In this document: positions 8,035-35,762 of the stretch, piece after piece
Position numbering within the stretch: position 1 is the stretch's first letter
Layout of the letters: every line of letters begins with the position of its first letter
Assembly: GCA_031270005.1 (NCBI GenBank)
Contig: JAISYJ010000137.1
Coordinates: 34,087-98,086, forward strand
Reading direction: 5' to 3'
Origin: Hungatella sp.
GTDB taxonomy: Bacteria > Bacillota > Clostridia > Lachnospirales > Lachnospiraceae
Length of the DNA stretch: 64,000 nucleotides
Notes under the pieces: model-generated
The model's input: only the letters and a program-made list of their open reading frames with translations
Told to the model about the DNA's origin: nothing
Databases searched by the model: none
Translations under genes and position numbers: made by a program

Positions 8035-8154
8035 GCAGGTATACCTTTCCGCCCGATAAAGCGGGCGGGCTTTGCCCGAAAGGCGTGGACAGAAAAGAGG
8101 AAACACTCTTCGAGTATACCGTTATGCCCAAAAAGCATGGGCAGAAAAGAGGAA
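8035..8154 (+). repeat. Family-1 junction repeat: long variant plus standard copy
   Basis: GCAGGTATACCTTTCCGCCCGATAAAGCGGGCGGGCTTTGCCCGAAAGGCGTGGACAGAAAAGAGGAA followed by ACACTCTTCGAGTATACCGTTATGCCCAAAAAGCATGGGCAGAAAAGAGGAA. Confidence 0.9.
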
Positions 8155-8158
8155 AACA

Positions 8159-10387
8159 ATGACGGAACGATTTGCCCGGATTATTATTGATATTTCCCAT
8201 GAAAAGGTTGACAGAACCTTTGATTACCGGATTCCGGCCGGACTTCTTGATGAAGTGGCTGTAGGTACTCTGGTTTTGATTCCTTTTGGAAAAGGGAATT
8301 CCATGCGGAAGGGGTATGTGGTCGGAATTGCCGCCCATGCGGATTATGATCCGGATAAAATTAAGGAGATAGCGGGAATCGTAACAGACGGCGTATCGGC
8401 AGAATCCCTGCTCATCTCCCTGGCATGGTGGCTGAAAGAGCGGTATGGCTCCACCATGAACCAGGCATTAAAAACAGTGCTTCCTGTGAAGCAAAAGGTA
8501 AAGCCAAGGGAAAAAAAGGTGCTTAAAAGCCTTTTGGACCATTCCCAGCTTTTAAATGCCTTAGAGGAAGCGGAAAAAAAGAAATACAAGGCCAGGGCAC
8601 GCCTCTTTCAGGCGCTTTTGGAGAATCCGGCCATTCCATACGAAATTGCGGTTAATCAGATGAACCTTTCTGCCGCCACCTTAAAGCCGGTTATTGAAAA
8701 AGGATACGTAAGCCTTGAATGTGAAGAGGTTTACAGAAATCCTGTTAAAACAGAAATAAAAGAAAGAAGCAAGGTGGTTTTAAACGGAGAACAGCAGGCG
8801 ATTGTAGACAGTTTTTGCCTGGATTATTCCAATAATATAAGAAAAACCTATCTGATCCACGGCATTACAGGAAGCGGCAAGACAGAAGTTTACATGGAAC
8901 TGATCCAAAAGGTCATAGAGGATGGAAAACAGGTGATTGTTCTCATTCCGGAAATTGCCCTGACTTATCAGACCGTCCTGCGTTTCTATGGAAGATTTGG
9001 GAACCGGGTGTCCATAATCAATTCCAGATTGTCGGCAGGGGAACGGTATGACCAGTTTGAACGGGCAAGAAACGGGGATATTGATATTATGATCGGTCCC
9101 CGTTCGGCCCTGTTTACGCCCTTTTCCCGTCTTGGACTGATACTCATAGACGAAGAGCATGAAGGAGCTTACAAAAGCGAGGTATCTCCAAGATACCATG
9201 CCAGGGAGGTGGCTGTGAAAAGAGCCTCCATGCAGGGGGCATCTTTGGTTTTAGGCTCGGCGACTCCCTCTCTGGAAGCTTATACAAAAGCCCTTCAGGG
9301 AGAATACCAGCTTTTTCGCCTGACGGAAAGGGCCAAAAAAAACAGCCGTCTGGCGGCAGTATCCGTGGTGGATTTAAGGCAGGAGCTTAAGGAAGGCAAT
9401 AAGTCCATTTTCAGCAGAAGCTTACAGGCGCTGATCGAGGACCGGCTGGAGAAGCGGGAACAGGCCATGTTATTTATCAACAGGCGCGGCTATGCGAATT
9501 TTGTGTCCTGCCGTTCCTGCGGAGAAGCCATTCGCTGCCCTCACTGTGATGTGACTCTGACACTTCATAATAACAGCCGACTTGTCTGCCATTATTGCGG
9601 ATATTCCATATCCATGCCTGACCGCTGTCCGGCCTGCGGCTCTCCCTACATTGCCAATTTTGGAGTGGGAACCCAGAAGATTGAACAAATGACCAGAAAA
9701 ATGTTTCCGGCTGCCAGAGTCCTGCGAATGGATCTGGACACCACCTCAAAAAAGGGAGGACATGAAGAGATACTCACTGCTTTTTCAGAAGGAGAGGCCG
9801 ACATCCTTATCGGCACCCAGATGATCGTAAAAGGGCATGATTTTCCAAATGTGACCCTGGTAGGAGTGCTGGCTGCAGACCTGTCTTTGAATACTCCGGA
9901 CTACCGGTCTGGAGAACGGACCTTTCAGCTTTTGACCCAGGCGGCAGGAAGGGCTGGCCGGGATTTTCGAAGCGGTGACGTGGTCATTCAGACCTATAGT
10001 CCGGAACACTACAGCATTGTGACCGCTGCCAATCAGGATTATGAGGCATTTTACCGGCAGGAAATGGCATATCGCCGTCTGATGAAATATCCTCCGGCAA
10101 GCGGCCTGTTAACAGTACAGTTTTCTTCCAGACTGGAAGACTGTTTGAAAGAAACAGCAGATGCGGCTGCCGGGTTTATCGGCCCCTTTGCGGAACAGGA
10201 AGCGGTGCAGATCATCGGCCCGGTAGAGGCTACTGTTTACAAAATTAATGATATCTATAGAAAAATTTTATACTTGAAACAGGAAAACTATGATATACTA
10301 ATAAAAATCAGGGATCAGATCGACGGTTTTTCAGAAAACTATGGGCACCTGTTTGATCAGGTAATGATCCAATACGATTTTTCATAA
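8159..10387 (+). CDS. priA: Primosomal protein N' (replication restart helicase)
   Basis: GITGSGKT, DEEH, four CxxC pairs (CRSC/CPHC/CHYC/CPAC), QAAGRAGR. Start at ATG 8159 (MTERFARIII). Confidence 0.97.
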   Translation: MTERFARIIIDISHEKVDRTFDYRIPAGLLDEVAVGTLVLIPFGKGNSMRKGYVVGIAAHADYDPDKIKEIAGIVTDGVSAESLLISLAWWLKERYGSTMNQALKTVLPVKQKVKPREKKVLKSLLDHSQLLNALEEAEKKKYKARARLFQALLENPAIPYEIAVNQMNLSAATLKPVIEKGYVSLECEEVYRNPVKTEIKERSKVVLNGEQQAIVDSFCLDYSNNIRKTYLIHGITGSGKTEVYMELIQKVIEDGKQVIVLIPEIALTYQTVLRFYGRFGNRVSIINSRLSAGERYDQFERARNGDIDIMIGPRSALFTPFSRLGLILIDEEHEGAYKSEVSPRYHAREVAVKRASMQGASLVLGSATPSLEAYTKALQGEYQLFRLTERAKKNSRLAAVSVVDLRQELKEGNKSIFSRSLQALIEDRLEKREQAMLFINRRGYANFVSCRSCGEAIRCPHCDVTLTLHNNSRLVCHYCGYSISMPDRCPACGSPYIANFGVGTQKIEQMTRKMFPAARVLRMDLDTTSKKGGHEEILTAFSEGEADILIGTQMIVKGHDFPNVTLVGVLAADLSLNTPDYRSGERTFQLLTQAAGRAGRDFRSGDVVIQTYSPEHYSIVTAANQDYEAFYRQEMAYRRLMKYPPASGLLTVQFSSRLEDCLKETADAAAGFIGPFAEQEAVQIIGPVEATVYKINDIYRKILYLKQENYDILIKIRDQIDGFSENYGHLFDQVMIQYDFS

Positions 10388-10397
10388 ATGAGAAGAT

Positions 10398-10448
10398 ACA
10401 CCCTTCGGGTATACCTTTATGCCCGGAAAGCATAGGTAGGAAAGAGGA
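10398..10448 (+). repeat. Family-1 junction repeat, single copy
   Basis: ACACCCTTCGGGTATACCTTTATGCCCGGAAAGCATAGGTAGGAAAGAGGA fills most of the priA-def gap. Confidence 0.92.
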
Positions 10449-10457
10449 TAAAAGAAA

Positions 10458-10949
10458 ATGGCAATTAGAAAGATCAGAACCATTGGAGATGAAATTTTAA
10501 GAAAACACTGCAAGCCTGTAAAGGAAATCACACCAAGGATCAGCGAGCTGATCGTGGATATGTTTGAGACCATGTATGACTCGTGCGGAGTTGGCCTTGC
10601 AGCTTCCCAGGTGGGGATTTTAAAACAGATCGTAGTCATAGATGTAGATGATGGCAACCAATATGTACTTATTAATCCGGAAATCATGGAGACAAGGGGA
10701 AGCCAGACCGGGCCGGAAGGCTGCCTTAGTGTGCCTGGAAAATCCGGTACGGTCACAAGGCCTGATTACGTAAAAGTAAAGGCTTATGATGCTGCCATGG
10801 AGCCGTTTGAGTTGGAAGGGGAAGGATTTTTGGCCAGGGCAATCTGTCATGAATGTGATCATTTAAACGGTGATCTCTATGTGGATATCGTGGAAGGCGA
10901 GCTGGAGGATGTCTCCTTAGATGAGGAAGAAGGAGAGGTTGAAGAATAA
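10458..10949 (+). CDS. def: Peptide deformylase
   Basis: GVGLAASQVG, EGCLS, HECDH motifs. Confidence 0.97.
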   Translation: MAIRKIRTIGDEILRKHCKPVKEITPRISELIVDMFETMYDSCGVGLAASQVGILKQIVVIDVDDGNQYVLINPEIMETRGSQTGPEGCLSVPGKSGTVTRPDYVKVKAYDAAMEPFELEGEGFLARAICHECDHLNGDLYVDIVEGELEDVSLDEEEGEVEE

Positions 10950-10951
10950 TT

Positions 10952-11986
10952 ATGCGTATCATATTTATGGGAACACCTGATTTTTCTGTTCCCGCTCTTG
11001 AGGCTTTAAAAGAGGCCGGGCATGAAATTCTTGCGGTAGTTACCCAGCCGGACAAACCCAAAGGAAGAGGGAAGGAAATCCAGATGACTCCGGTAAAGGA
11101 GAAAGCAATGGAATACCACATCCCTGTTTATCAGCCAGTCAAGGCCAGGGATCCGGAATTTGTTAAAATTCTATCAGATCTGGAACCGGAACTGATCGTA
11201 GTAATTGCTTTTGGACAGATTCTGCCAAAGGCGATTCTGGATATTCCAAAATATGGATGTGTGAATATCCATGCATCTCTGCTCCCTAAATACCGTGGCG
11301 CATCTCCCATACAGTATGCGGTCATTAACGGGGAAAAGGAAAGCGGGGTCACGATCATGATGATGGCGGAAACCCTGGATACCGGAGATATGCTGGATCA
11401 GGAAGCCATTGCTTTAGATAAAAAAGAAACCTTCGGAAGCCTTCATGATAAGCTGAGCAGTCTGGGAAGCAGGCTTATTTTGAAAACCATAATAAAGCTG
11501 GAAGAAGGGACTGCCGTACGTACGCCTCAGGATGATTTAAAGACCTGCTACGTAGGCATGATAAAAAAGTCCATGGGAGATATTGACTGGTCCATGGATG
11601 CAGTATCCATTGAACGCCTGATCCGCGGCTTAAATCCATGGCCCAGTGCTTATACTGTCTGGAATGGAAAAGTGATGAAACTGTGGGAAGCAGAGGTAGT
11701 GGATAAAGAGTATGAGGGGGCTTACGGCCAGGTAGTAGAGGCTGGCCGGGACTCTCTGGTCATAAAGACCGGGAAAGGCAGCCTGTCCATACGAAAACTT
11801 CAGCTGCAGGGAAAAAAATGCATGGAAATTGATGCATTTCTCCGCGGATACCAGATTGCGGAAGGTACCGTTTTGGAGCGCCTCGCAGGCACATCTTCAT
11901 GCAGCGTGGGCAAGAAAGTGGAACGCCCTGCGGGCATACCTTTATGCCCAGAAAGCGTGGGCAAGAAAGTGGAAAGGAGAATCTGA
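10952..11986 (+). CDS. fmt: Methionyl-tRNA formyltransferase with repeat-derived ~35-aa C-terminal extension
   Basis: MRIIFMGTPDFS, NIHASLLPKYRGASP, RGLNPWP motifs; the last ~35 codons run through two family-1 repeats. Confidence 0.96.
   Translation: MRIIFMGTPDFSVPALEALKEAGHEILAVVTQPDKPKGRGKEIQMTPVKEKAMEYHIPVYQPVKARDPEFVKILSDLEPELIVVIAFGQILPKAILDIPKYGCVNIHASLLPKYRGASPIQYAVINGEKESGVTIMMMAETLDTGDMLDQEAIALDKKETFGSLHDKLSSLGSRLILKTIIKLEEGTAVRTPQDDLKTCYVGMIKKSMGDIDWSMDAVSIERLIRGLNPWPSAYTVWNGKVMKLWEAEVVDKEYEGAYGQVVEAGRDSLVIKTGKGSLSIRKLQLQGKKCMEIDAFLRGYQIAEGTVLERLAGTSSCSVGKKVERPAGIPLCPESVGKKVERRI
11878..11974 (+). repeat. Family-1 junction repeat: two tandem copies inside the fmt 3' end
   Basis: GCGCCTCGCAGGCACATCTTCATGCAGCGTGGGCAAGAAAGTGGA and ACGCCCTGCGGGCATACCTTTATGCCCAGAAAGCGTGGGCAAGAAAGTGGAA. 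Confidence 0.9.
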
Positions 11987-11988
11987 TT

Positions 11989-12705
11989 ATGTATTATGGC
12001 GGCATGATGGGATATTATTGGGATCCGACCTGGATCCTTGTCATCATTGGAGCAGTTCTTTCCATGGTGGCATCTGCAAGGGTGAATAGTACATTTAATA
12101 AATATTCAAAAGTGAGAAGTATGTCCGGGATGACAGGAGCAGAAGCGGCAAAACGCCTTTTAAATTCCCAGGGCATTTATGATGTTCAGGTAAGGTCTGT
12201 AGGCGGGCAGCTTACGGATCATTATGATCCAAGAACCAAAACCGTTAATCTGTCGGATTCTGTTTACGGCTCCACATCAGTGGCGGCAATCGGTGTTGCG
12301 GCTCATGAATGCGGTCATGTTATGCAGGACAGCACAGGCTATATTCCCTTAAAACTCCGGGCAGCCATTGTTCCTGCGGCCAATATTGGCTCCAAGGCAG
12401 CACTGCCTCTCATTATTCTCGGCGTCATTATAGGGGGAATCGGTTCTCCCTTAGTTAATATCGGCCTGATCCTTTTTTCTGTGGCGGTTATTTTCCAGCT
12501 GGTCACCCTGCCTGTGGAATTTAATGCGTCCAGCCGGGCGGTCACTCTTTTGGGCCAGGTGGGAATCTTAGGCGATCAGGAGTTAGGTTATACCAGAAAA
12601 GTTCTGGGGGCTGCAGCCCTTACCTATGTAGCGGCGCTTGCTGCGACCGTACTTCAGCTTTTAAGGCTGGTTATCTTGTTCGGAGGAAGAAGGAATGATG
12701 ACTAA
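11989..12705 (+). CDS. YugP-family membrane zinc metallopeptidase
   Basis: LTDHYDPR, AAHECGH (HExxH), LPVEFNASSRA, AAALTYVAA motifs; start ATG 11989 after AAGGAG. Confidence 0.9.
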   Translation: MYYGGMMGYYWDPTWILVIIGAVLSMVASARVNSTFNKYSKVRSMSGMTGAEAAKRLLNSQGIYDVQVRSVGGQLTDHYDPRTKTVNLSDSVYGSTSVAAIGVAAHECGHVMQDSTGYIPLKLRAAIVPAANIGSKAALPLIILGVIIGGIGSPLVNIGLILFSVAVIFQLVTLPVEFNASSRAVTLLGQVGILGDQELGYTRKVLGAAALTYVAALAATVLQLLRLVILFGGRRNDD

Positions 12706-14026
12706 GGAGACCGACAGCAGGGAAATTGCCCTGGATATCCTGTTAGAGATCCTGGAGCGAGGAGGCTACAGCCATATCATCCTGCGCCAGGCTTTAAATA
12801 AATATCAGTATCTGGATAAATCGGAACGGGCCTTTATTTCCAGGATAGCAGAAGGAACTGTGGAATACCTGCTTCAGATCGATTATATCATTGATTCCTT
12901 TTCCAACACAAAGGTTAAAAAGATGAAGCCGGTAATACGCACGATTCTGCGCATGTCGGTTTATCAGCTTCTTTATATGGACCGTGTTCCGGATTCCGCC
13001 GTATGCAACGAAGCGGTGAAGCTTGCCGTGAAACGGAAATTTACAGGATTAAAGGGCTTTGTCAATGGGGTACTGAGGAATATTTCCAGAAATAAAGAGG
13101 GCTTAAGCTGGCCGGATGATTCTGTCCGTTATTCCATGCCGGCATGGATCGTATCCATGTGGGAGGAAAGTTTTGGCCGGGAAACGGCAGTCACCATGAT
13201 GGAGTCCTTTTTAAAGGATAAAAAAACTACGGTCCGCTGCAATTTTGCAAAGGCTTCCAAGGAAGAAATCCTTAAAAGCCTTAAAAAGCAGGGGGCAGAA
13301 GTGAGTGAGTCCGGAATTTCGGAAGCAGTGCTTTGCATTGAAAAATATGATTACCTGGAAGGACTGGAAGCATTCCAAAAGGGGTATATCCAGGTTCAGG
13401 ATCTAAGCTCCAGCTTTGTAGGTGAGATCGCAGATCCGAAAAAGGGAGATTACGTCATTGACGTATGCGGCGCTCCTGGAGGAAAGAGCATTCATATAGC
13501 AGATAAGCTTGACGGAACAGGCATGGTGGAGGTCCGTGACTTAAGCTTCCAAAAGATAAGCATGGTTGAGGAAAATATTAAACGGTGCGGATTTTCAAAT
13601 ATCCGTACAAAGGTCCAGGACGCTCTTGCTGCAGATCCGGATTCAGTGGAAAAAGCGGACATTGTTATTGCTGACCTGCCTTGCTCCGGGCTTGGGATCA
13701 TCGGACGAAAGCCGGATATCAAATACCGTATGACGCCGGAAGACTTGGAATCCCTGGCAGCGCTCCAACGGGAGATTCTGGCAGTTATCCAGGCATATGT
13801 AAAACCGGGCGGGCGTCTGATTTTCAGTACATGTACCATAAACAGAAAAGAAAATGAAGAAAATGCCCAGTGGTTCCTTGAGCATTTTCCTTTTGACTGC
13901 ATAAGACTAAAGGGAAAGTTTGGAGAAAAGATGGATTCAGCCGCTGCGAACCAGGAATTTTTACAGCTTTTGCCGGGAATCCATCCCTGTGACGGATTTT
14001 TTATTGCGGCATTTCAAAAAAGGTAG
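12695..14026 (+). CDS. rsmB: 16S rRNA m5C967 methyltransferase
   Basis: N-terminal NusB-like domain; VQDLSS, DVCGAPGGKS, DLPCSGLG, FSTCT motifs. Confidence 0.95.
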   Translation: MMTKETDSREIALDILLEILERGGYSHIILRQALNKYQYLDKSERAFISRIAEGTVEYLLQIDYIIDSFSNTKVKKMKPVIRTILRMSVYQLLYMDRVPDSAVCNEAVKLAVKRKFTGLKGFVNGVLRNISRNKEGLSWPDDSVRYSMPAWIVSMWEESFGRETAVTMMESFLKDKKTTVRCNFAKASKEEILKSLKKQGAEVSESGISEAVLCIEKYDYLEGLEAFQKGYIQVQDLSSSFVGEIADPKKGDYVIDVCGAPGGKSIHIADKLDGTGMVEVRDLSFQKISMVEENIKRCGFSNIRTKVQDALAADPDSVEKADIVIADLPCSGLGIIGRKPDIKYRMTPEDLESLAALQREILAVIQAYVKPGGRLIFSTCTINRKENEENAQWFLEHFPFDCIRLKGKFGEKMDSAAANQEFLQLLPGIHPCDGFFIAAFQKR

Positions 14027-14077
14027 GGCCTTCAAGGCATACCTTTATGCCCAAAAAACGTGGGCAGAATAGAGGAA
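14027..14077 (+). repeat. Family-1 junction repeat, single copy
   Basis: GGCCTTCAAGGCATACCTTTATGCCCAAAAAACGTGGGCAGAATAGAGGAA fills the rsmB-rlmN gap. Confidence 0.9.
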
Positions 14078-14084
14078 ATATAGA

Positions 14085-15158
14085 ATGGATAAGATAGATA
14101 TAAAATCTCTGGATATGGAACACCTGATATCCTATATGGTGTCCATAGGAGAAAAGCCCTTCCGTGCAAAGCAGCTTTATGAATGGATGCACCAGAAGCT
14201 GGCTTCTGATTTTGATGAGATGACCAATCTTCCTAAATCGCTGAAAGAAAAGCTTTTGCAGCTTACAGAATTTACCTGCCTTACAGTCGTAGAGGAAAAG
14301 ATTTCAAAAATAGATGGAACAAGAAAATACTTATTTGCCCTTTCCGATGGAAATGTGATTGAAAGCGTTTTGATGAAATACAAACATGGAAATTCTGTCT
14401 GCATTTCATCCCAGGTAGGCTGCCGCATGGGCTGCCGGTTCTGTGCTTCCACACTTGACGGACTGGAAAGGAATTTAACTCCTTCTGAAATGCTTGACCA
14501 GATATACCGGATCCAAAAGATCACCGGGGAGCGGGTTTCCAATGTGGTGGTCATGGGATCCGGAGAACCTATGGATAATTATGATCATCTGGTTCAGTTC
14601 ATTCGTTTACTTACTGATGAAAACGGCCTGAATATCAGCCAGCGTAACATAACGGTGTCCACCTGCGGCATTGTTCCGGGAATTCTTCGACTGGCTGAAG
14701 AAGATTTACAGATCACTCTGGCTTTGTCTCTTCATGCACCAAATGACGAAGTCAGAAAAACCCTGATGCCTGTTGCCAACCGTTACCCCCTAAAAGAGGT
14801 GTTGGATGCCTGCCAGACGTATTTTGAAAAGACAGGGCGAAGGCTTACCTTTGAATACAGCCTTGTAAGCGGTGTCAATGATAATTTAAAAGAGGCAGCC
14901 GCCCTGACTGCTCTTATAAAAGGCCAGCACGGGCATGTGAATCTGATTCCGGTAAATCCTATTAAGGAGCGCAATTACGTGCAGTCAGACCGGAAGGCCA
15001 TAGAAGCCTTTAAAAATCTTCTTGAAAAAAATGGAATAAATGTTACTATAAGAAGAGAAATGGGACGGGATATTAACGGCGCCTGCGGGCAGCTGAGAAA
15101 AAGCTTTTTAACCGACTCAGGGAAGTCCCCCGCTTCAAATGCGCGGAGCATTAATTAG
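14085..15158 (+). CDS. rlmN: 23S rRNA m2A2503/tRNA m2A37 radical-SAM methyltransferase
   Basis: CISSQVGCRMGCRFCAS, MGSGEP, SLHA, ACGQL motifs. Confidence 0.97.
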   Translation: MDKIDIKSLDMEHLISYMVSIGEKPFRAKQLYEWMHQKLASDFDEMTNLPKSLKEKLLQLTEFTCLTVVEEKISKIDGTRKYLFALSDGNVIESVLMKYKHGNSVCISSQVGCRMGCRFCASTLDGLERNLTPSEMLDQIYRIQKITGERVSNVVVMGSGEPMDNYDHLVQFIRLLTDENGLNISQRNITVSTCGIVPGILRLAEEDLQITLALSLHAPNDEVRKTLMPVANRYPLKEVLDACQTYFEKTGRRLTFEYSLVSGVNDNLKEAAALTALIKGQHGHVNLIPVNPIKERNYVQSDRKAIEAFKNLLEKNGINVTIRREMGRDINGACGQLRKSFLTDSGKSPASNARSIN

Positions 15159-15206: not shown

Positions 15207-15297
15207 AAGCAGCAATCGCTGCTATTTGGTTATGCCCGGTGGAGCGGGGGCACGCTGTGAGCAAGTAGGGTCGCGGATTACTAATATCCGCTTGATA
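15207..15297 (+). repeat. Family-2 hairpin repeat (long form)
   Basis: AAGCAGCAATCGCTGCTATTTGGTTATGCCCGGTGGAGCGGGGGCACGCTGTGAGCAAGTAGGGTCGCGGATTACTAATATCCGCTTGA; closely matches 28694-28780. Confidence 0.9.
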
Positions 15298-18228: not shown

Positions 18229-18232
18229 GAAA

Positions 18233-18308
18233 ACACCCTGCGGGCATACCTTTACGCCCGATAAAGCGGGGCGAGTTTTGCCCAGAAAGCATGGGCAGGA
18301 AAAAGGAA
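18233..18308 (+). repeat. Family-1 junction repeat, long variant
   Basis: ACACCCTGCGGGCATACCTTTACGCCCGATAAAGCGGGGCGAGTTTTGCCCAGAAAGCATGGGCAGGAAAAAGGAA fills the pknB-rsgA gap. Confidence 0.92.
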
Positions 18309-18313
18309 AGTAT

Positions 18314-19192
18314 ATGACAGGAAAAATTTTGAAAGGAATCGCAGGCTTTTACTATGTCCACGGCACGGACGAAACCATCTATGAATGTAAGGCAAAGGGT
18401 ATATTCCGCAATAAAAACGTAAAACCTTTGGTTGGGGATGATGTGGCATTTTCTATTCTGGACAGTTTGGAAAAGAAAGGAAACATCGAACAGATCCTTC
18501 CAAGGAAAAATGTCCTGGTACGTCCGGCCGTAGCTAATGTGGATCAGGCCATGGTGCTGTTTGCCATCACCCAGCCGGAACCCAACTTAAATCTGCTGGA
18601 CCGTTTTCTGGTTATGATGGAAGTTCAGGAGGTTCCCGTAAAAATCTGTTTTAATAAAATTGATTTGGTTGGAAACGAGGAAATGCAGGCTCTTGGAGAA
18701 ATCTATGAGGCGGCAGGCTATCCCGTATTTTTTACCAGTACCTATGACGATCAGGGAATTGAGGAAATCAGGGAACTGGTGCGGGGAAAAACCACGGTTT
18801 TGGCAGGACCTTCCGGAGTAGGAAAGTCCTCCTTAACCAACCTTCTCTATCCCCAGGCTGAGATGGAGACTGCAGGTATCAGCGAGAAGATCCAGAGAGG
18901 AAAGCATACCACCAGGCATTCGGAGATTTTTGGCATCGGCCGGGATACGTACCTGATGGATACGCCGGGATTTAGTTCCATGTACTTAGATGACATGGAG
19001 TGTGGCCGGCTGAAAGATTATTTTCCGGAGTTTGAGCCCTATGAGGACGGATGCCGGTTTCTGGGCTGTGTGCACATAGGGGAAAAAACCTGCGGCGTAA
19101 AGGATGCGGTAGAAGAAGGAAAAATAAACCGGGGCCGATATGAAAACTACCGGCTTTTATATCAGGATCTAAAAGAGAAAAGGAGATATTAA
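18314..19192 (+). CDS. rsgA: Ribosome small subunit-dependent GTPase A
   Basis: NKIDL, GPSGVGKSS, GKHTTRH, DTPGF, CRFLGCVH Zn motif; start ATG 18314. Confidence 0.96.
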   Translation: MTGKILKGIAGFYYVHGTDETIYECKAKGIFRNKNVKPLVGDDVAFSILDSLEKKGNIEQILPRKNVLVRPAVANVDQAMVLFAITQPEPNLNLLDRFLVMMEVQEVPVKICFNKIDLVGNEEMQALGEIYEAAGYPVFFTSTYDDQGIEEIRELVRGKTTVLAGPSGVGKSSLTNLLYPQAEMETAGISEKIQRGKHTTRHSEIFGIGRDTYLMDTPGFSSMYLDDMECGRLKDYFPEFEPYEDGCRFLGCVHIGEKTCGVKDAVEEGKINRGRYENYRLLYQDLKEKRRY

Positions 19193-20611: not shown

Positions 20612-21199
20612 ATGAGTAAAACAGACAACAGGATTTATAAAACCGCACTGACAGGACTATTTGCAGCCATGTCCTATGTAGTATTTACGTTCCTGCAATT
20701 TAAGATCACACTTCCGGGAGGAGATGCCACATCCATTCATCTGGGAAATGCGGTCTGTGTTTTGGGAGCGCTTTTATTAGGTGGGCTGTACGGCGGATTA
20801 GGCGGTGCCATCGGCATGACCATAGGAGATCTTTTTGACCCGGTTTATGTGGTCTATGCACCAAAGACTTTTGTACTAAAGCTGTGCATCGGCCTTATCA
20901 CCGGATTTTTGGCTCATAAGATCGGCAGGATCAATGAATCCTCTGATAAAAAGCATATACTTTCCTGGACCATTGCGGCCGTGGCAGGAGGACTTTTGTT
21001 CAATGTGATTTTTGATCCCCTGGTGGGTTATTTTTACAAGCTTCTGATCCTGGGAAAACCGGCGGCAGAACTGGCGCTGGCATGGAATGTTGCTTCTACT
21101 TCCATTAATGCAATAACCTCTGCCATTGTTTCCGTCATCATTTATATGCCCCTTCGGAATGCCCTGATCAGATCCGGTTTATTTACGAAAATTTGTTAG
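20612..21199 (+). CDS. ECF transporter S-component, probably for vitamin B6 (PdxU-like)
   Basis: ~195 aa, about six TM helices, IHLGN...GGLYGGLGGAIGMTIGD pattern; directly upstream of pdxK. Confidence 0.75.
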   Translation: MSKTDNRIYKTALTGLFAAMSYVVFTFLQFKITLPGGDATSIHLGNAVCVLGALLLGGLYGGLGGAIGMTIGDLFDPVYVVYAPKTFVLKLCIGLITGFLAHKIGRINESSDKKHILSWTIAAVAGGLLFNVIFDPLVGYFYKLLILGKPAAELALAWNVASTSINAITSAIVSVIIYMPLRNALIRSGLFTKIC

Positions 21200-21202
21200 G
21201 AA

Positions 21203-21237
21203 GCACCCTGCCAAAAAGCGTGAGCAGGAAAGAGGAA
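21203..21237 (+). repeat. Family-1 junction repeat, internally deleted copy
   Basis: GCACCCTGCCAAAAAGCGTGAGCAGGAAAGAGGAA: the 5' and 3' ends of the element are joined and the middle is missing. Confidence 0.75.
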
Positions 21238-21243
21238 ATTTTT

Positions 21244-22083
21244 ATGACATCAGAAATACATCAGAAGAAAATTGCTGTCATTCATGATCTGTCAGGATAT
21301 GGCCGCTGTTCCTTAACAGTGGCCCTTCCCATTCTTTCAGCCTTAAAGGTCCAGTGCTGTCCGGTTCCAACCTCCATACTATCTAATCATACCGGATTTC
21401 CAACCTATTTTTTTGATGATTATACGGAGAAAATGCCTTCATACATTGAACAGTGGAAAAAACTGGATCTGTCCTTTGACGGGATTTACAGCGGATTTTT
21501 AGGCTCCGAGGAACAGATTGGGATTGTCATTGACATGATTAAGGATTTTAGAACACCAGATACAAAGGTTTTGGTGGATCCCATTATGGGAGATCACGGA
21601 AAGGCCTATCAGACCTATACGGAAAGGATGTGCAGCCGTATGAAGGAACTGGTGGGATTTGGAGACATTGTGACCCCCAATCTGACAGAAGCCTGTATCC
21701 TGACCGGAAGGGAATACCGGCCAGAAGGCTGGAAACGTGCAGAGCTTCTTTCAATGGCGGCTGAAATATGGGAAATGGGACCTGATTCCGTGGTGATCAC
21801 AGGTATAAGGGAAGGCGGCTATGTGACCAATGTAGTAGCGGAGAAGGACCGGGAACCCCGCTTTTTACGTTCTCTTCATGTTGGATGTGAACGGCCGGGA
21901 ACCGGAGATGTGTTTTCCAGCATCCTTGCAGCCCAGACCGTGAAGGGAATTCCCTTGACAGAGGCAGTGAAAAAAGCGGCCGGTTTTGTAAAGAACTGTA
22001 TTATAAAATCCGATGAGCTTCATGTTCCGGTGAAAAACGGAGTTTGCTTTGAAGAAATCCTTTCTTTGCTCATTCGAGGATAA
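21244..22083 (+). CDS. pdxK: Pyridoxal/pyridoxamine kinase
   Basis: HDLSGYGRCSL, LSNHTG, YSGFLGS, VDPIMGD, TPNLTE, GTGD motifs; start ATG 21244. Confidence 0.9.
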   Translation: MTSEIHQKKIAVIHDLSGYGRCSLTVALPILSALKVQCCPVPTSILSNHTGFPTYFFDDYTEKMPSYIEQWKKLDLSFDGIYSGFLGSEEQIGIVIDMIKDFRTPDTKVLVDPIMGDHGKAYQTYTERMCSRMKELVGFGDIVTPNLTEACILTGREYRPEGWKRAELLSMAAEIWEMGPDSVVITGIREGGYVTNVVAEKDREPRFLRSLHVGCERPGTGDVFSSILAAQTVKGIPLTEAVKKAAGFVKNCIIKSDELHVPVKNGVCFEEILSLLIRG

Positions 22084-27948: not shown

Positions 27949-28695
27949 ATGAATTATCACATATTAACCCTGTTTCCTGAGATGGTCCTAAACGGCCTCC
28001 ACACCAGCATTATCGGAAGAGCGGCAGAAAAGGGCCTGCTTTCCATTGAAGCCATTGATATCCGGGAATATTCAACAGACAAACACCGCCATGTGGATGA
28101 TTATCCTTATGGAGGCGGAGCCGGAATGGTCATGCAGCCCATGCCGATCTGTGAAGCCTATGATGACTTGTGTGAGAAAATCGGGAAAAAGCCCCGGGTT
28201 ATTTACATGACTCCTCAGGGAAGGGTTTTTAACCAGAGAATTGCAGAGGATCTGGCAAAGGAAGAAGACCTTGTTTTTCTATGCGGTCATTATGAAGGAA
28301 TTGATGAGAGAGCTTTGGAGCTTGTTGCCACGGATTATCTTTCCATTGGCGACTATGTGCTGACAGGTGGCGAGCTTCCGGCCATGGTAATGATTGACTG
28401 CATTTCCCGTCTGATTCCAGGGGTCTTAAACAACGATACCTCTGCAGAATTTGAATCCTTTCACGATAACCTACTGGAATATCCCCAGTATACCAGGCCG
28501 GAAGAGTACAGGGGGCTTAAGGTTCCTGATATCCTTTTATCCGGTCATCATAAAAATATCGATGCCTGGAGAAGGGAACAATCCATTAAGCGGACCCTGG
28601 AACGCAGGCCGGATCTTCTGGCAGATGCCAACCTGTCGAAAAAAGAAGCGGAATATTTAAAAAAGCTTGAAAATGAGCAGGAAAAACAGGAATAA
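27949..28695 (+). CDS. trmD: tRNA (guanine-37-N1)-methyltransferase
   Basis: VDDYPYGGGAGM, CGHYEGIDER, SIGDYVLTGGE, YPQYTRP, LLSGHH. Confidence 0.98.
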   Translation: MNYHILTLFPEMVLNGLHTSIIGRAAEKGLLSIEAIDIREYSTDKHRHVDDYPYGGGAGMVMQPMPICEAYDDLCEKIGKKPRVIYMTPQGRVFNQRIAEDLAKEEDLVFLCGHYEGIDERALELVATDYLSIGDYVLTGGELPAMVMIDCISRLIPGVLNNDTSAEFESFHDNLLEYPQYTRPEEYRGLKVPDILLSGHHKNIDAWRREQSIKRTLERRPDLLADANLSKKEAEYLKKLENEQEKQE

Positions 28696-28780
28696 GCAAT
28701 AGCAGCTATTCGGTTATGCCCGGTGGAGCGGGGCAGGCTGTGAGCAAGTAGGGTGGCGGATTGCAAATATCCGCTTGACA
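28694..28780 (+). repeat. Family-2 hairpin repeat (long form)
   Basis: AAGCAATAGCAGCTATTCGGTTATGCCCGGTGGAGCGGGGCAGGCTGTGAGCAAGTAGGGTGGCGGATTGCAAATATCCGCTTGACA. Confidence 0.9.
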
Positions 28781-28887: not shown

Positions 28888-28911
28888 AATAATATCAAGG
28901 AGGTTCACACA

Positions 28912-29259
28912 ATGAACGAAATTATTAAGAATATTGAAGCAGCACAGTTAAAGCAGGAAGTTCCTCAGTTCAACGTTGGCGATACCGTTAAGGTATACAA
29001 CAAGATCAAAGAGGGAGCCCGCGAGAGAATCCAGATTTTTGAAGGAACTGTTATCAAAAGACAGAACGGCGGCGCCAGAGAGACATTTACCGTAAGAAAG
29101 AATTCTAACGGCATCGGTGTTGAGAAGACCTGGCCATTACATTCCCCTTCCGTAGACAACATTGAAGTTGTAAGAAAGGGTAAAGTAAGAAGAGCAAAAC
29201 TGTATTACTTAAGAGACAGAGTTGGTAAGGCTGCTAAGGTTAAAGAATCAGTTAAATAA
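28912..29259 (+). CDS. rplS: 50S ribosomal protein L19
   Basis: [38 protein letters not shown]. Confidence 0.98.
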
Positions 29260-29274
29260 TTCCGGATCAAGGTG

Positions 29275-29303
29275 AGGGGGACAATGCAAATTGTCCCTTT
29301 CTT
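29275..29303 (+). terminator. Intrinsic terminator after rplS
   Basis: GGGACAAT-GCAA-ATTGTCCC followed by TTTCTT. Confidence 0.65.
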
Positions 29304-29402
29304 GGCATAGTTACTTAAGAAAGTTCAGTTCACCATGCTCACCAAATGACCAATTATGCCAAGGGAATCGAACTTTCTTATAATAGATGGGGTGTTTCAT
29401 AC

Positions 29403-29954: not shown

Positions 29955-29963
29955 AGGAATGTT

Positions 29964-30806: not shown

Positions 30807-30820
30807 CCGGAATTAAATGA

Positions 30821-30861
30821 TAGGGTTTTGCTTTTTGGAAGAAGAGCAAGACCCTGTTTTT
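30821..30861 (+). terminator. Hairpin between rbgA and rnhB
   Basis: AGGGTTTTGCTTTT...AAGAGCAAGACCCT followed by GTTTTT. Confidence 0.5.
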
Positions 30862-30887
30862 CAATCATAAAATGGGAGCTTAAAGAA

Positions 30888-31538
30888 ATGAGAAAATTAA
30901 CAGAAGAAAAACTTCAGGCGGAACGAGAGCGACTGGAAAACATGAAAGAGTTTGAATACCGGTATGAGGATCATATACTGGTCTGCGGTATCGATGAAGC
31001 AGGACGGGGGCCTCTGGCAGGACCGGTGGTGGCCGGCGCAGTGATCCTTCCCAGGGCCTGCGAGATTCTTTTTTTAAATGATTCAAAAAAGCTGTCAGAG
31101 AAACGGCGGGAAGCCCTGTTTGAAGAGATCCAGGAAAAAGCTTCCGCTTATGCGGTGGGAGTAGTGGGAGCAGACAGGGTCGATGAAATAAATATCCTTC
31201 AGGCTACCTATGAAGCGATGAGGCTTGCCATAAGTAAATTGGGAGTGGAGCCGGAGGTTCTTTTAAATGATGCGGTCACGATCCCTGGCATTGCCGTTTC
31301 CCAGGTTCCCATTGTCAAGGGAGATTCAAAAAGTGTGTCAATTGCCGCCGCAAGCATCATGGCCAAAGTGACCAGGGATCATATGATGGAAGAATATGAT
31401 AAAATATTTCCGGAATATGGTTTTGCAAAGCATAAAGGGTATGGGACGGCCTTTCATATTAATGCCTTAAAGGAGTTTGGCCCCTGCCCCATTCACAGGC
31501 GCAGTTTTATTAAAAATTTTGTGGGAGGCTCTCTTTGA
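30888..31538 (+). CDS. rnhB: Ribonuclease HII
   Basis: GIDEAGRGPLAGPVV, DSKKL, KGDSKS, AAASIMAKVTRD, KGYGT. Confidence 0.96.
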   Translation: MRKLTEEKLQAERERLENMKEFEYRYEDHILVCGIDEAGRGPLAGPVVAGAVILPRACEILFLNDSKKLSEKRREALFEEIQEKASAYAVGVVGADRVDEINILQATYEAMRLAISKLGVEPEVLLNDAVTIPGIAVSQVPIVKGDSKSVSIAAASIMAKVTRDHMMEEYDKIFPEYGFAKHKGYGTAFHINALKEFGPCPIHRRSFIKNFVGGSL

Positions 31539-31879
31539 AAAACCATCGGGAGGTTGGACGCCAGTTTGAGGATGCGGCCGCCGCATATCTGGAAAGTAAA
31601 GGATATGTAATATTAGAGCGAAATTATGGGGACCGTAAGGGAGAAATTGATATCATCGCAAAGGATGGAAAGGAACTCGTCTTTATCGAGGTAAAGTACC
31701 GGCGGAATCTGGAAAAAGGGGATCCTGCGGAAGCAGTCCATTTTTTGAAACAGAGAAAAATCAGGGATGCTGCCAGGAGATATCTGTACCGGCACCATCT
31801 GGGAGAGGACATTCCCTGCCGGTTTGATGTGGTGGCAATCCTGGGCCAGGAAATCCGGCTGATTAAAGACGCATTTTAA
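31535..31879 (+). CDS. yraN: YraN-family (UPF0102) putative nuclease
   Basis: GEIDIIAKD, FIEVKYR, RFDVVAI; conserved position after rnhB. Confidence 0.9.
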   Translation: MKNHREVGRQFEDAAAAYLESKGYVILERNYGDRKGEIDIIAKDGKELVFIEVKYRRNLEKGDPAEAVHFLKQRKIRDAARRYLYRHHLGEDIPCRFDVVAILGQEIRLIKDAF

Positions 31880-31890
31880 ACAAAGGTGTG

Positions 31891-32751
31891 ATGGAAAATA
31901 TGTGGAAGCGAAAAGCAAGTGATATGAGATTGGATTATAAAACAGTGGAAAAGGTGCCTTATTTGTCTTTTCCGATTTTAGAAAGAACCGGGCTGGTGAA
32001 ACAAGGATTTTCAACGAAGCTGGGCGGCGTCAGCCAGGGAAAGTTTGCTACTATGAATTTTACATTTACCCGGGGAGATAACCGGTCACATGTCCTGGAA
32101 AACTACAGTCGGATGGCAAAGGCCCTGGGAGTTGATGTGGAACGGATGGTTTTGTCCTATCAGACCCATACCACCAATGTCCGGCTGGTGGCGGAAGAGG
32201 ACGCAGGGAAAGGAATTGTAAAGGAACGGGATTATGAAGATGTGGATGGATTGATCACTAATGTTCCTGGAATTACCCTGGTCACTTTTTATGCAGATTG
32301 CGTTCCCCTTTATTTTCTGGATCCAATCCACAGAGCCGTTGGGCTCAGCCATTCCGGCTGGAGGGGAACCGTGAAACGCATGGGGGAAGTTACTGTTAAA
32401 AAAATGGAGGAAGCCTTTGGGACAAAGGCGGAGGATGTGATCGCCTGCATCGGCCCCAGCATTTGCATGGAATGCTATGAGGTGGGAAGTGAAGTCGCCC
32501 AGGAGTTTATGAAAGGGTTTGACAGGAAGCATTGGAGCGAAATATTATCGGAAAAGGAAGATGGGAAATATTTACTGGACCTTTGGCGGGCAAATGAAAT
32601 TGTGCTGCTGGAGGCAGGGGTAAAGCAGGAAAATATCCAGGTTACGGATATCTGTACTCATTGTAATTCAGATCTTTTATTTTCCCATCGGACGACCGGA
32701 AATGAGAGAGGGAATCTGGCTGCGTTTTTAGGACTCGATGAAAAAAGATAA
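31891..32751 (+). CDS. pgeF: PgeF/YfiH-family purine nucleoside phosphorylase (laccase domain); start uncertain (31888/31891/31900)
   Basis: GFSTKLGGVS, QTHT, DGLIT, ADCVP, HSGWRG, IGPSI, CT, FSHR motifs. Confidence 0.9.
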   Translation: MENMWKRKASDMRLDYKTVEKVPYLSFPILERTGLVKQGFSTKLGGVSQGKFATMNFTFTRGDNRSHVLENYSRMAKALGVDVERMVLSYQTHTTNVRLVAEEDAGKGIVKERDYEDVDGLITNVPGITLVTFYADCVPLYFLDPIHRAVGLSHSGWRGTVKRMGEVTVKKMEEAFGTKAEDVIACIGPSICMECYEVGSEVAQEFMKGFDRKHWSEILSEKEDGKYLLDLWRANEIVLLEAGVKQENIQVTDICTHCNSDLLFSHRTTGNERGNLAAFLGLDEKR

Positions 32752-32768
32752 CCTTTAATGATACAGAT

Positions 32769-32887
32769 GGAGAGATGCTGTTAAGCTGACTTAAGTTCGC
32801 TTACAGCATCTCCCTTTTGTTAAAATAAAAAGGAGCATTGCCCCGGCATGAATTATGATAATTTCATGCCCTGGTGCAATACTCCTT
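32769..32887. terminator. Back-to-back terminators between convergent pgeF and prs
   Basis: GAGATGCTG...CAGCATCTC plus T-run (plus strand); AAGGAGCATTGC..GGCATGAA/TTCATGCC..GCAATACTCCTT preceded by an A-run (minus strand). Confidence 0.65.
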
Positions 32888-32915
32888 TCCGCTTTTACGA
32901 AAGCGAAGCAGATTC

Positions 32916-34094
32916 TTATGCCCGATATTTTTTTAACAAATTCTGTATCTTTTCTGTAGAAGAAAGGGCAGTACTTATGGGCACATCATGATTTAAAGAA
33001 TTAACAATTGCCGCAATGTATTTGCTGATGTCTGCTTCCACATACCATTCTCTGTCAAGCAATTCCATGGGACGGTAATTTAAATTTGTTGTAACGACAC
33101 AGTCTATGTAGCCCCGGCTGTAATACTCGTCAAATTTAGCCAGTCCGTTGGTAAACAGGCCAAAGGTACAGCAAACAATTACCTTGTCCGCTTTCCGCTC
33201 CTTTAATTCCTTAGCCGTATCCAGCATGCTTTCTCCGGAGGAGATCATATCATCTACGATCAGCACCGTTTTGCCCTCTACGGAAGCGCCTAAGAACTCA
33301 TGGGCAACGATAGGGTTCCGCCCGTCTATCACTTTGGAGTAATCTCGTCTTTTATAAAACATACCCATGTCCACGCTTAAGTTGTTTGCCAGGTATACGG
33401 CACGGTCCATGGCACCCTCATCCGGGCTGATCACCATTAAATGCTCTTTATCAATCTTTAAATCCGGACACTTCCTCAATACTGCCTTGACAAACTGGTA
33501 AGTGGGCATGAAATTGTCAAATCCATTTAACGGGATGGCATTTTGGACCCTGGGATCGTGGGCGTCAAAGGTAATGATGTTGCTGACTCCCATATGTACC
33601 AGTTCTTCCAAAGCCATGGCGCAGTCTAAAGATTCCCTTTTGGTTCTCTTATGCTGGCGGCTCTCATATAAAAACGGCATAATAACACATACCCTGTGGG
33701 CCGTTGCGCTGCAGGCGCCAATGATTCTTTTTAAATCCTGAAAATGGTCATCAGGAGACATGTGGTTGGTATAACCATTGACGGTATAGGTTATGCTGTT
33801 ATTGGTGACGTCTGCCATCACAAATACGTCCGTGCCACGGACAGATTCCCTGATGATGCCTTTCGCTTCTCCGCTTCCAAAACGCGGGCATTCGCATTTG
33901 AGAAGATAGGAGTCCACATCGTATCCGCGATAGTGAAGATCAGCTTTTCGGCGTATAAGCTCCTGGATATCATTTCTGCGGAAACCTACGATGTGGTCGT
34001 TTACTTTCCCGGCCAATTCCCGGCAGCTTTCCAGCGCTGCAATCTTTAAGGGAGCAACAGGTAGCTGGTCGTTAAATACATAATCATTTGCCAT
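32916..34094 (-). CDS. prs: Ribose-phosphate pyrophosphokinase
   Basis: The reverse complement gives MANDYVFND...KKYRA (TTA at 32916, CAT at 34092-94, RBS GGAGG on minus). Motifs FGSGE, PFLYESRQ, DAHDP, SPDEGA, VDDMISSG. The track's '+' label is wrong. Confidence 0.92.
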   Translation of the reverse strand: MANDYVFNDQLPVAPLKIAALESCRELAGKVNDHIVGFRRNDIQELIRRKADLHYRGYDVDSYLLKCECPRFGSGEAKGIIRESVRGTDVFVMADVTNNSITYTVNGYTNHMSPDDHFQDLKRIIGACSATAHRVCVIMPFLYESRQHKRTKRESLDCAMALEELVHMGVSNIITFDAHDPRVQNAIPLNGFDNFMPTYQFVKAVLRKCPDLKIDKEHLMVISPDEGAMDRAVYLANNLSVDMGMFYKRRDYSKVIDGRNPIVAHEFLGASVEGKTVLIVDDMISSGESMLDTAKELKERKADKVIVCCTFGLFTNGLAKFDEYYSRGYIDCVVTTNLNYRPMELLDREWYVEADISKYIAAIVNSLNHDVPISTALSSTEKIQNLLKKYRA

Positions 34095-34161
34095 GACAAA
34101 GATTCCTCCATAATAAATCAACAGCCAGTCGTAAGACTGCCTGCTTTTAATCTTACACCCT

Positions 34162-34191
34162 TTTATACCATTGAATGACAGAATGCGTCAA
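34162..34191 (-). promoter_or_regulatory. Promoter for prs
   Basis: Minus strand: TTGACG, 18 bp, TG-G-TATAAA. Confidence 0.55.
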
Positions 34192-34234
34192 TAGCTTCGG
34201 TCGTATTTCCAGGAAAAAAACAAAAAAGGCTTCC

Positions 34235-34263
34235 TTTACAAAGAGTAACAATCTTGTTATGAT
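34235..34263 (+). promoter_or_regulatory. Promoter for the DUF512-der-plsY-gpsA operon
   Basis: TTTACA (34235-40), 17 bp, TG-T-TATGAT (34258-63). Confidence 0.65.
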
Positions 34264-34295
34264 ATATGGGACAGCTACAGAAAGGTAAAATTAAG

Positions 34296-35762
34296 ATGAG
34301 CAAAAGAGGACATATCATAAAAGAAGTTGATTCCGGCTCCATAGCAGATCAGCTGGAACTGGAGCCAGGGGATACGGTCCTGTCCATAGATGGTCATGAA
34401 CTGGAAGACATTTTTGATTATGAGTATTACATTAACAGCGAGTCCATTCTCATGACCGTGAAAAAAAAAGACGGGGAAGAATGGGAGCTGGAAATAGAAA
34501 ACCAATACGAGGATCTGGGTATTACCTTTGAAAACGGACTCATGAGTGAATACAGATCCTGCCGGAATAAATGCATTTTCTGCTTTATAGACCAGATGCC
34601 CCCTGGAATGAGAGAAACCCTGTATTTTAAGGATGACGATTCCAGGCTTTCCTTTTTGCAGGGGAACTACGTGACGCTGACTAACATGAGCGATCATGAC
34701 ATTGACCGCATCATAAAGTTTAAGCTGGCACCGATCAACATTTCCGTTCATACGACCAATCCTGCTTTAAGGTGTGAGATGCTTCACAACCGGTTTGCAG
34801 GCCAAGCCCTGGATAAGATCAAGAGGCTGTATGAGGCAGGGATCCCGATGAACGGACAGATTGTGCTTTGCAAGGGCGTGAATGACGGAAAGGAGCTGGA
34901 GAGGACCATAAAGGATTTATCAGAATACCTTCCGTATATGGAGAGTGTATCCGCCGTCCCTGTTGGAATGTCAAAATACCGGGATGGCCTGTATCCTTTA
35001 CAGCCCTTTACAGCTGAAGATGCAAAAGAGATCGTGGAGATCATCGGACGATGGCAGAAAAAGCTTTTTAAAACCCATGGAACCCATTTCATTCATGCCA
35101 GTGACGAGCTTTATATCCTGGCGGGGCTGCCTTTTCCGGAAGAGAGCCGTTACGACGGATATATTCAGCTGGAAAACGGCGTAGGCATGCTGCGGCTTTT
35201 GGATGAGGAGATTAAGGCCGCTCTGGAAACCATGGAAGACGACCATAAGTCTGAAGAAATCTCAATCGCAACAGGCAGGCTTGCTGCTCCTTATATTGAA
35301 AGACATGCAAAAATGGTACAGGAAAAATTTCCAGGGCGGGTCATTCACGTTTATGCTATTACCAATGTCTTTTTCGGGGAGCAAATCACAGTGGCAGGCT
35401 TAATCACCGGCCAGGATTTAATCGGACAGCTTAAGGGACAGGCACTGGGCAGACGGTTATTGCTTCCGGAATGTATGTTCCGAAGCGGAGAAGAGGTATT
35501 TCTTGATGACCTGACCCGCCAGGATGTACAAAATGCTTTACAAGTACAGGTAGATATTGTAAAATCAAGCGGTCAGGATTTTGTACAGGCAGTTCTTGAG
35601 CCGGTAGAAGAGAGTGAAGCTTCTTATGAAGCATATGAGTTAAACACCCTTGCGGGTATACCTTTATGCCCGGAAAACATGGGCGAGGGAGAGAAATACC
35701 CTTCGGGTATATCTTTATGCCAAAAAAGCATGGGCAAAGAGGAGAAAGGAAATATTATATGA
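34296..35762 (+). CDS. PDZ + DUF512 putative radical-SAM protein (TIGR03279-like) with repeat-derived C-terminal extension
   Basis: N-terminal PDZ-like region; CRNKCIFC (CxxxCxxC), [23 protein letters not shown]; conserved position upstream of der. Confidence 0.88.
35644..35746 (+). repeat. Family-1 junction repeat: two tandem copies inside the DUF512 gene 3' end
   Basis: ACACCCTTGCGGGTATACCTTTATGCCCGGAAAACATGGGCGAGGGAGAGAA and ATACCCTTCGGGTATATCTTTATGCCAAAAAAGCATGGGCAAAGAGGAGAA. Confidence 0.92.

Follow-up and report, generated by a model that had tools for sequence, protein, structure and literature searches.

The 64-kb window analyzed here (the whole stretch of 64,000 nucleotides (nt) from Hungatella sp. 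contig JAISYJ010000137.1) contains eight gene junctions that hold a repeat of about 50 nt, ending in a purine tail just before a start codon. The repeat and its relation to the Shine-Dalgarno (SD) sequences of the downstream genes are the subject of this work. NCBIfam supports PriA, Def, RlmN, RsgA, pyridoxamine kinase, Der and Fmt as gene names in the window, and identifies the gene 5' of priA as murF. The gene 5' of der encodes a TIGR03279-like radical-SAM protein, with a score under the family cut-off. The features, which involve several open reading frames (ORFs), are as follows.

6443 to 6595, plus strand: three-unit array 5' of murF, with a degenerate unit (6443-6491) followed by units 6490-6541 and 6540-6595
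6598, plus strand: probable ATG of murF, 6 nt past the GAGG at 6588-6591
8034 to 8155, plus strand: murF-priA array, a long variant with an extra hairpin (8034-8103) and a canonical unit (8102-8155)
8159, plus strand: ATG of priA; tail GAGG at 8149-8152, 6-nt spacer
10388 to 10397, plus strand: putative original SD of def, now a displaced 5' copy, ATGAGAAGAT here and ATGAGAGGAT in relatives, its GG lost in this genome
10398 to 10449, plus strand: single unit between priA and def; tail GAGG at 10444-10447, 10-nt spacer, def ATG at 10458
11878 to 11976, plus strand: a partial and a full unit within the 3' end of the fmt ORF (fmt stop at 11984-11986)
11990, plus strand: ATG of the ORF after fmt; its SD, AAGGAG, spans the element end
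14029 to 14078, plus strand: single unit between rsmB and rlmN; tail GAGG at 14072-14075, 9-nt spacer, rlmN ATG at 14085
18232 to 18310, plus strand: long variant unit between pknB and rsgA; tail end AAGGAAAG, with AAGGAA; rsgA ATG at 18314
21197 to 21203, plus strand: 5' target copy TAGGAAG at pdxK
21204 to 21238, plus strand: internally deleted unit before the pdxK-like kinase gene; tail GAGG at 21232-21235, 8-nt spacer, ATG at 21244
35648 to 35748, plus strand: two units before der; the upstream radical-SAM ORF reads through them, and its TGA (35760-35762) overlaps the der ATG (35759)
35746 to 35751, plus strand: apparent working SD of der, AAGGAA

The first-pass annotation of the window had placed GAGG 6-10 nt before the ATGs of priA, def, rlmN and pdxK, and we read spacers of 6, 10, 9 and 8 nt, respectively. 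It had also let rsgA (18314) and der (35759) begin after an AAGGAA at the element end, with which our coordinates agree, and had remarked that the element fills almost the whole intergenic space. This is the case for four gaps of 44-85 nt: priA-def (70 nt), rsmB-rlmN (58 nt), pknB-rsgA (85 nt) and the gap between the preceding ORF and pdxK (44 nt). The window contains 8 occurrences of the motif RAAAGAGGAA, where 0.82 would be expected, and 0 of 100 shuffles attained this count.

Each unit consists, in order, of a hairpin (P1), a linker (AUACCUUUA), a second hairpin (P2) and the purine tail, which reads GGAAAGAGGAAA or AAUAAGGAAA. The repeating unit is about 52 nt long with a body of about 45 nt, and arrays have a period of 50-52 nt. 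P1 is a 4-bp stem with a UNC loop (ACCC-UNC-GGGU), and P2 is a 5-bp stem (UGCCC/GGGCA) closing a 9-nt A-rich loop. The linker is nearly invariant and unpaired; with a major-allele frequency of 0.88, against 0.90 for the P2 stem, these are the two most conserved parts of the unit. When column pairs were ranked by mutual information in an nhmmer alignment of 149 full copies, the top three were all Watson-Crick covariations: 4-14 (AU/GC/CG), 7-11 (CG/UA) and 26-40 (CG/UA). We also built a covariance model from the window copies, with which 55 copies were retrieved, from the window itself, from named relatives and from five other genera. Within this alignment 94.8% of cells were paired, compared with 88.9% after shuffling (0 of 500 shuffles attained the observed value), both sides changed in 6 of 9 pairs, and slid registers gave 25-56%. 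The 55-copy alignment was fitted to the covariance model and is hence biased to structure; the independent nhmmer alignment yields the same pairs. An alternative hairpin, H2, formed by the P1 3' arm and the P2 5' arm, was rejected, since the partners with which columns 11 and 26 covary are columns 7 and 40 rather than 28 and 13; H2 pairs have a mean probability of 0.14. Stop codons are depleted from the consensus in each of its three sense frames, for which we estimate a chance of about 5% and on which we base no claim.

Two departures from this plan occur in the window. The pdxK unit is without about 17 nt that comprise the P1 3' arm, the linker and the P2 5' arm. The long variant units (about 70-79 nt; 8034-8103 and 18232-18310) contain an extra CGCCCGATAAAGCGGGCG-like hairpin between linker and P2, and such a unit is also found at the rlmN junction of several relatives.

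To place the repeat genome-wide, we used iterated nhmmer profile searches of the draft genome (4.59 Mb, 44% G+C) of this Lacrimispora-like gut bacterium, which found 172 copies that form 136 arrays. Of these arrays, 120 end within 25 nt of the start of an ORF on the same strand (80 amino acids or longer), compared with 7 of 136 in an antisense control. For the 120 starts, the best anti-SD match lies within the tail in 64, across the element end in 34 (typically GGAAAG|GAG) and downstream in 22; the tail thus holds or overlaps the best match in 98 of 120. Because of these genome-wide counts, we conclude that the placement of the tail at the SD position is a general property of the repeat family and no local coincidence. 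On the upstream side, 98 arrays (about 72%) have the end of a same-strand ORF no more than 150 nt away or within the array itself, so that arrays lie mostly within operons. About 17 of the 136 arrays are entered by the upstream ORF, and most lie untranslated between stop codon and SD. Every unit in the arrays is a direct repeat on the gene strand. Targeting of a replication strand was ruled out, as array orientation tracks genes and not replication: 115 of 132 arrays (87%) lie on the strand with positive GC skew, compared with 83% of long ORFs, and 12 of the 17 arrays on the other strand still stand 5' of same-strand starts.

The same repeat units reach into coding sequence in the window. The C-termini of Fmt (10952-11986) and of the TIGR03279-like radical-SAM protein (34266-35762) are extended by about 40 residues through 1.5 and 2 repeat units, respectively. 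The corresponding ORFs of element-free relatives end at a TAG or TAA that lies about 20 nt or 3 nt short of the following ATG.

The origin of the SDs was addressed at orthologous junctions taken from 20-30 congeners. At def, which is unfilled in at least 15 congeners, the empty junction reads TAA-ATGAGAGGAT-AAAAGAAA-ATG; when filled, 52 nt ending in AGAGGAT are inserted after GAGGAT and the 8-nt spacer is unchanged. The empty rsgA junction is TAAGGAAAATAT-ATG, and in the filled one AAGGAAA stands on either side of the insert. Sixteen genomes have AAGGAG, 7-9 nt (9 nt in ten) and ATG at der, where the insert of filled alleles lies between TTAAA and GGAG. The rlmN start is preceded by AAAGG and 9 nt when empty and by AGAGG and 9 nt when filled, and the distant empty sites of priA read GGAGGAAA-TGA-ATG, compared with AGAGGAAA-ACA-ATG for filled ones. 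With the empty pdxK junction (TAGGAGCTCTT-ATG), an SD-like run is present in the empty state of all six junctions, at identical spacing for def, rsgA, rlmN and priA and within 1-3 nt of the filled spacing for der and pdxK.

These alignments bear on the two readings offered by the first-pass annotation: a portable initiation module that supplies the SD, or insertion next to existing SDs with their duplication. As an account of the origin of the SD, the first is not supported, since the empty junctions have an SD-like run of their own, with a spacing equal or close to that of the filled ones. An SD in element-free orthologous junctions had been named as the first half of a case against exaptation, and at all six sites the SD appears to have stood there before the element and not to have been brought by it. 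The second reading gains support from direct repeats of the target purine run that flank the inserts and from SD-like 5' flanks. The observation that a tail copy presently occupies the SD position stands; by its position, the tail would be the working SD. The displaced 5' copies at def and rsgA are without GG in this genome, the one at rsgA having eroded to TAAGAAAA.

The direct repeats of the purine run that bracket the inserts measure 7 nt at four sites and 11-14 nt at others. The 7-nt duplications are AGAGGAT at def, AAGGAAA at rsgA, AATGAAA between fmt and the next ORF and AGGGAAA inside rsmB. Tail bases that depart from the consensus equal the local target, namely T at def, GGG inside rsmB and TGAAA at the fmt junction. 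At a site polymorphic between this genome and its congener G002, the 11-nt repeat GGAAAGAGGAA stands on both sides of the insert and one copy is present in the empty allele, and a single copy in another genus has a flanking repeat of 13-14 nt. The 5' flanks of 114 first-in-array copies have an SD-like consensus ending in GGAA, and each flank fits its own tail better than shuffled tails (z 4.8-5.9; 0 of 2000 shuffles attain the observed fit). Repeats of such variable length (7-14 nt) speak against a transposase of fixed stagger; microhomology-guided copying or recombination would fit them better. Elsewhere in this genome (contig C88, 3370-3399) we observed a 22-nt tandem duplication of a purine-rich target and downstream bases with no repeat body. 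Its counterpart has one unit in G002 and three in a named Lachnospiraceae isolate; the duplication could be the footprint of an excision or the product of an abortive event.

A derivative of IS200/IS605-type insertion sequences, similar to palindrome-associated transposable elements (PATEs), would explain some of these properties in another way. The two hairpins would be the left- and right-end structures recognized by a Y1 transposase on single-stranded DNA, insertion would take place 3' of a short purine target, and a similar cleavage site at the right end would mimic a target duplication. The unit does have a hairpin near each end, no terminal inverted repeats, a strict orientation and precise empty alleles. 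At the right end of IS608 a hairpin is followed by the junction about 10 nt on, and here too the junction lies about 10 nt past P2. The genome contains three Y1_Tnp matches. None of the three loci has element-like flanks, and the best has an in-frame stop. The agreement of off-consensus tail bases with the local target at def, rsmB and fmt marks the duplications as true ones, and the strand bias is that of the genes (87% vs 83%), with lagging-strand arrays still following genes. We regard this derivation as quite unlikely, and a Y1 transposase was rejected as the mobilizer, none of the three loci being flanked by the element. A gene for an IS200-like Y1 transposase, interrupted by an in-frame TAG (contig C101, 101041-101364; locus L061), is not associated with the repeat, and two further partial Y1 matches are found on contigs C15 and C90.

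We then considered the distribution of the repeat among relatives. The exact 32-nt core occurs in Lacrimispora spp., Hungatella sp. metagenome-assembled genomes, Lachnospiraceae bacterium 54-53 and Clostridium sp. Marseille-P2415. All seven congeners searched with a model of the repeat (G001, G002, G005, G010, G017, G020 and G021) contain copies, with 13 to 119 matches among 150 scored candidates. Related units were found in 5 of 200 other genera of the family Lachnospiraceae. They retain P1 and most of the linker; their P2 stems differ yet remain self-complementary (GCGC, GTCC/GGAC, GCCTT/AAGGC, GCGCG and GCC/GGC), and the last unit likewise stops a few bases short of a start codon.

Turnover was read from a tree of PriA, RsmB, RlmN and PknB set against junction lengths. 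The rlmN insertion is present in 13 of 21 compared genomes and the 8 outer-clade genomes are empty, a pattern in which the insertion appears to be old and common to the whole element-rich clade. At def, a rare loop signature is common to G021, G024 and one G019 copy, and a second signature joins this genome with the other G019 copy. No insert is present in G011, G012 and the G016/G023/G007 clade, whose sites are precisely empty. Because signatures are shared despite precisely empty sites, we count at least three precise losses or allele replacements at def, and the pattern of presence and absence is homoplastic. Congeners have between 1 and 4 copies at the der junction and between 1 and 3 at murF-priA, and copies with internal deletions were seen in two places, pdxK of this genome and rsgA of G016.

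In-frame copies of the repeat also lie in the first ~10 codons of two genes in relatives, rsmB (G001 and G012) and the thiamine pyrophosphokinase gene tpk (G019 and G012). The insertion in rsmB of G001 is 51 nt long, those in tpk consist of 1 or 3 units, and the sites are SD-like purine runs. The copies tied to these insertions are listed below.

Locus L048 (G012): 12783 to 12835 and 5576 to 5719
Locus L049 (G001): 7151 to 7200
Locus L047 (G019): 14327 to 14380

In G001 (Clostridium sp. Marseille-P2415), a second, partial priA 5' region with repeat units lies about 2.5 kb upstream of the main locus (contig C9, 892749-895394) and looks like a local segmental duplication bounded by repeats.

The same comparisons bear on the view that no element was inserted at all, and that each site has a conserved cis-regulatory leader or a local tandem duplication inherited vertically. 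Within the element-rich clade, most or all of the genomes sampled have filled rsmB-rlmN and murF-priA junctions, and unequal crossover could alter copy number without mobility. Set against this are the 136 dispersed loci with unrelated flanks and genes, the insertions into coding sequence in relatives, and the target repeats that flank the element at sites empty in sister genomes; no Rfam family matches either. Vertical inheritance of leaders is hardly credible as an account of the repeat.

Taken together, we think that the repeat is probably a small non-autonomous interspersed family that enters existing SDs and leaves a copy of the SD downstream. The element would enter SD-like purine runs (RRGGAA) in translation-initiation regions, in sense orientation only, and the run would end up as direct repeats bracketing the insert. 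The downstream copy and the original spacer would still precede the start codon, and the gene would retain a working ribosome-binding site (RBS). Insertion would be near-neutral for this reason, and copies could build up at about 120 gene starts. Each new tail would offer a fresh target or crossover point, giving tandem arrays of varying copy number, and recombination or slippage between the flanking repeats would excise the element precisely. We infer the mobility of the element, the use of the tail copy as the actual SD and the near-neutrality of insertion.

Several findings weigh against this reading. At der, the 5' flank and the tail have only AAA in common, the last bases of the flank, as the IS200/IS605 derivation would allow, and copying of the target thus does not account for every tail. 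The tail type also partly tracks the body subfamily, and with the case of der this suggests that part of the tail travels with the element. The empty allele of the G002 polymorphism already has a canonical tail and is maybe an excision footprint, not a naive target. The family has a mean pairwise identity of 0.74 with no identical pair among the 149 full copies, and therefore no sign of very recent movement. No mobilizing gene, terminal inverted repeats or fixed-length target duplication were found. Finally, evolution of orthologous copies is slower than that of 4-fold sites in the flanking genes (0.925 vs 0.884 for G002, p = 0.004; 0.912 vs 0.796 for G021), which hints at constraint on resident copies and at some host-level role.

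Such a role is the core of a further explanation, to which this slow evolution lends support: the unit, whatever its origin, would be an RNA module selected by the host, whose hairpins insulate the RBS from upstream structure in polycistronic mRNA. The hairpins might also block exonucleases at processed ends, and SD-like tails without a start codon might hold 30S subunits in the manner of STAB-SD. The first-pass annotation had likewise supposed that the hairpins could tune translation or protect the ends of processed mRNA. The architecture and both hairpins have been kept over at least six genera via compensatory changes, about 72% of the arrays are no more than 150 nt from a same-strand upstream ORF, mostly inside operons, and internal tails, which no start codon follows, resemble an SD as much as terminal tails do. 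The predicted unpaired probability from -16 to +3 is 0.60 with the array and 0.50 when the array is removed in silico (Wilcoxon p = 3e-9), a modest gain that depends on artificial empty constructs. Against host selection, the presence of the repeat varies between close species at housekeeping junctions with no compensating change, copies decay or drop internal parts, and the genes served have no common functional theme. Sense-strand G-U intermediates in the stems are not above A-C (15 vs 30). Terminal tails are no better SDs than internal ones, that is, no selection for stronger SDs is seen. We rate a host-selected module unlikely.

The linker, (A)CCUUU(A), resembles the 3' end of 16S rRNA (ACCUCCUUU), and in minimum free energy folds of the rlmN, rsgA and der copies its CCUUU pairs with AGAGG or AAAGG of the tail. 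The mean probability of pairing in the canonical linker-tail register is only 0.10, and no compensation is seen for linker variants. We give little credence to the idea that the linker is an anti-SD mimic, which would either guide the element to SD-like DNA or RNA targets or reversibly mask the tail SD in the mRNA. If it guided targeting, a mobile element would find its landing site as the ribosome does; if it masked the tail SD, about 120 housekeeping genes would stand under a common, transposable and condition-sensitive (e.g. temperature) translational gate.

Searches for related or larger elements gave the following results. A search for a composite or master element, with halves 0.3-5 kb apart, found only neighboring independent copies, the half-models being of low sensitivity. 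Rfam gave no match at gathering thresholds over the whole window, and for 6380-8200 only chance-level matches at E-values up to 10. Plasmid and phage collections contained no match to the repeat. The literature search returned no paper with the core sequence and nothing relevant on Lacrimispora or Lachnospiraceae repeats. An unrelated repeat of about 85 nt is present in the window in two copies with 92% identity (15211-15295 and 28695-28778). Its end is a GCGGATT-NNNAATATCCGC hairpin with TTGA after it, and at the rlmN-PP2C junction it is found in some congeners only.

On the favored reading of insertion into existing SDs, a selfish or neutral repeat can colonize the RBSs of essential genes, their most constrained non-coding bases, without breaking them. 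In the annotation of Lacrimispora-like genomes, the repeat accounts for intergenic gaps made up entirely of repeat, for the C-terminal extensions of Fmt and the radical-SAM protein, and for the in-frame N-terminal inserts of RsmB and thiamine pyrophosphokinase in relatives. Its arrays are variable-number markers, of the type of mycobacterial interspersed repetitive units (MIRUs), for strain typing, and the natural filled and empty alleles form a ready allelic series for the effects of RBS-adjacent structure in Clostridia.

We compared the repeat with known systems. STAB-SD, in the leader of Bacillus thuringiensis cryIIIA, is a single leader feature with shown mRNA-stabilizing activity. The internal array tails and displaced 5' copies of the repeat are SD-like and without a start codon, the defining look of STAB-SD; they differ in belonging to a dispersed repeat, in which a stabilizing role would be a putative one. 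Repetitive extragenic palindromic (REP) sequences, including bacterial interspersed mosaic elements (BIMEs) and the REPIN-RAYT system, are likewise abundant short intergenic repeats with hairpins, often in operons, with covariation and arrays. However, REPs follow stop codons, are found in either orientation or as inverted pairs, have no SD and are linked to RAYT, whereas the present units are direct, in sense orientation and abut start codons, and the three Y1 loci are not associated with them. Elements of the miniature inverted-repeat transposable element (MITE) type (BOX, RUP, Correia/NEMIS and ERIC) are similarly small, non-autonomous, co-transcribed and strain-polymorphic, and sometimes affect mRNA processing or expression. 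In contrast to the repeat, they have terminal inverted repeats, short target duplications of fixed length (e.g. TA) and no SD preference; the ends of our consensus share only a 5-nt inverted CCTGC, and its direct repeats vary from 7 to 14 nt. With PATEs the repeat shares hairpins and the lack of terminal inverted repeats, but its target is duplicated, its strand bias does not go beyond that of the genes, and no cognate TnpA was found in the genome.

By analogy, MIRUs appear to be the closest to the repeat in behavior. In the passages on MIRUs in PMC12548453 (citing Supply 1997), they insert at start codons and sustain expression via a coupled small ORF. As described there, MIRUs are units of about 50 nt in variable-number tandem arrays, oriented with transcription in the intercistronic gaps of operons, and they are apparently mobile, located at gene starts, with downstream expression preserved (PMC12548453). 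The repeat, with its period of 50-52 nt, has the array form expected of MIRU-like repeats (units of roughly 46-100 bp in variable-number tandem arrays, oriented with transcription). The two are hosted by different phyla, and no similarity between their sequences was found. The same passages give MIRUs an internal ORF with coupling by a -4 overlap (PMC12548453), while the present repeat re-creates an SD and has two covarying hairpins; with only about 17 of 136 arrays entered by the upstream ORF, its continuity would come from the regenerated SD and not from a coupling ORF. The repeat is thus a member of the known class of small intercistronic repeats, and regeneration of the SD sets it off from MIRUs.

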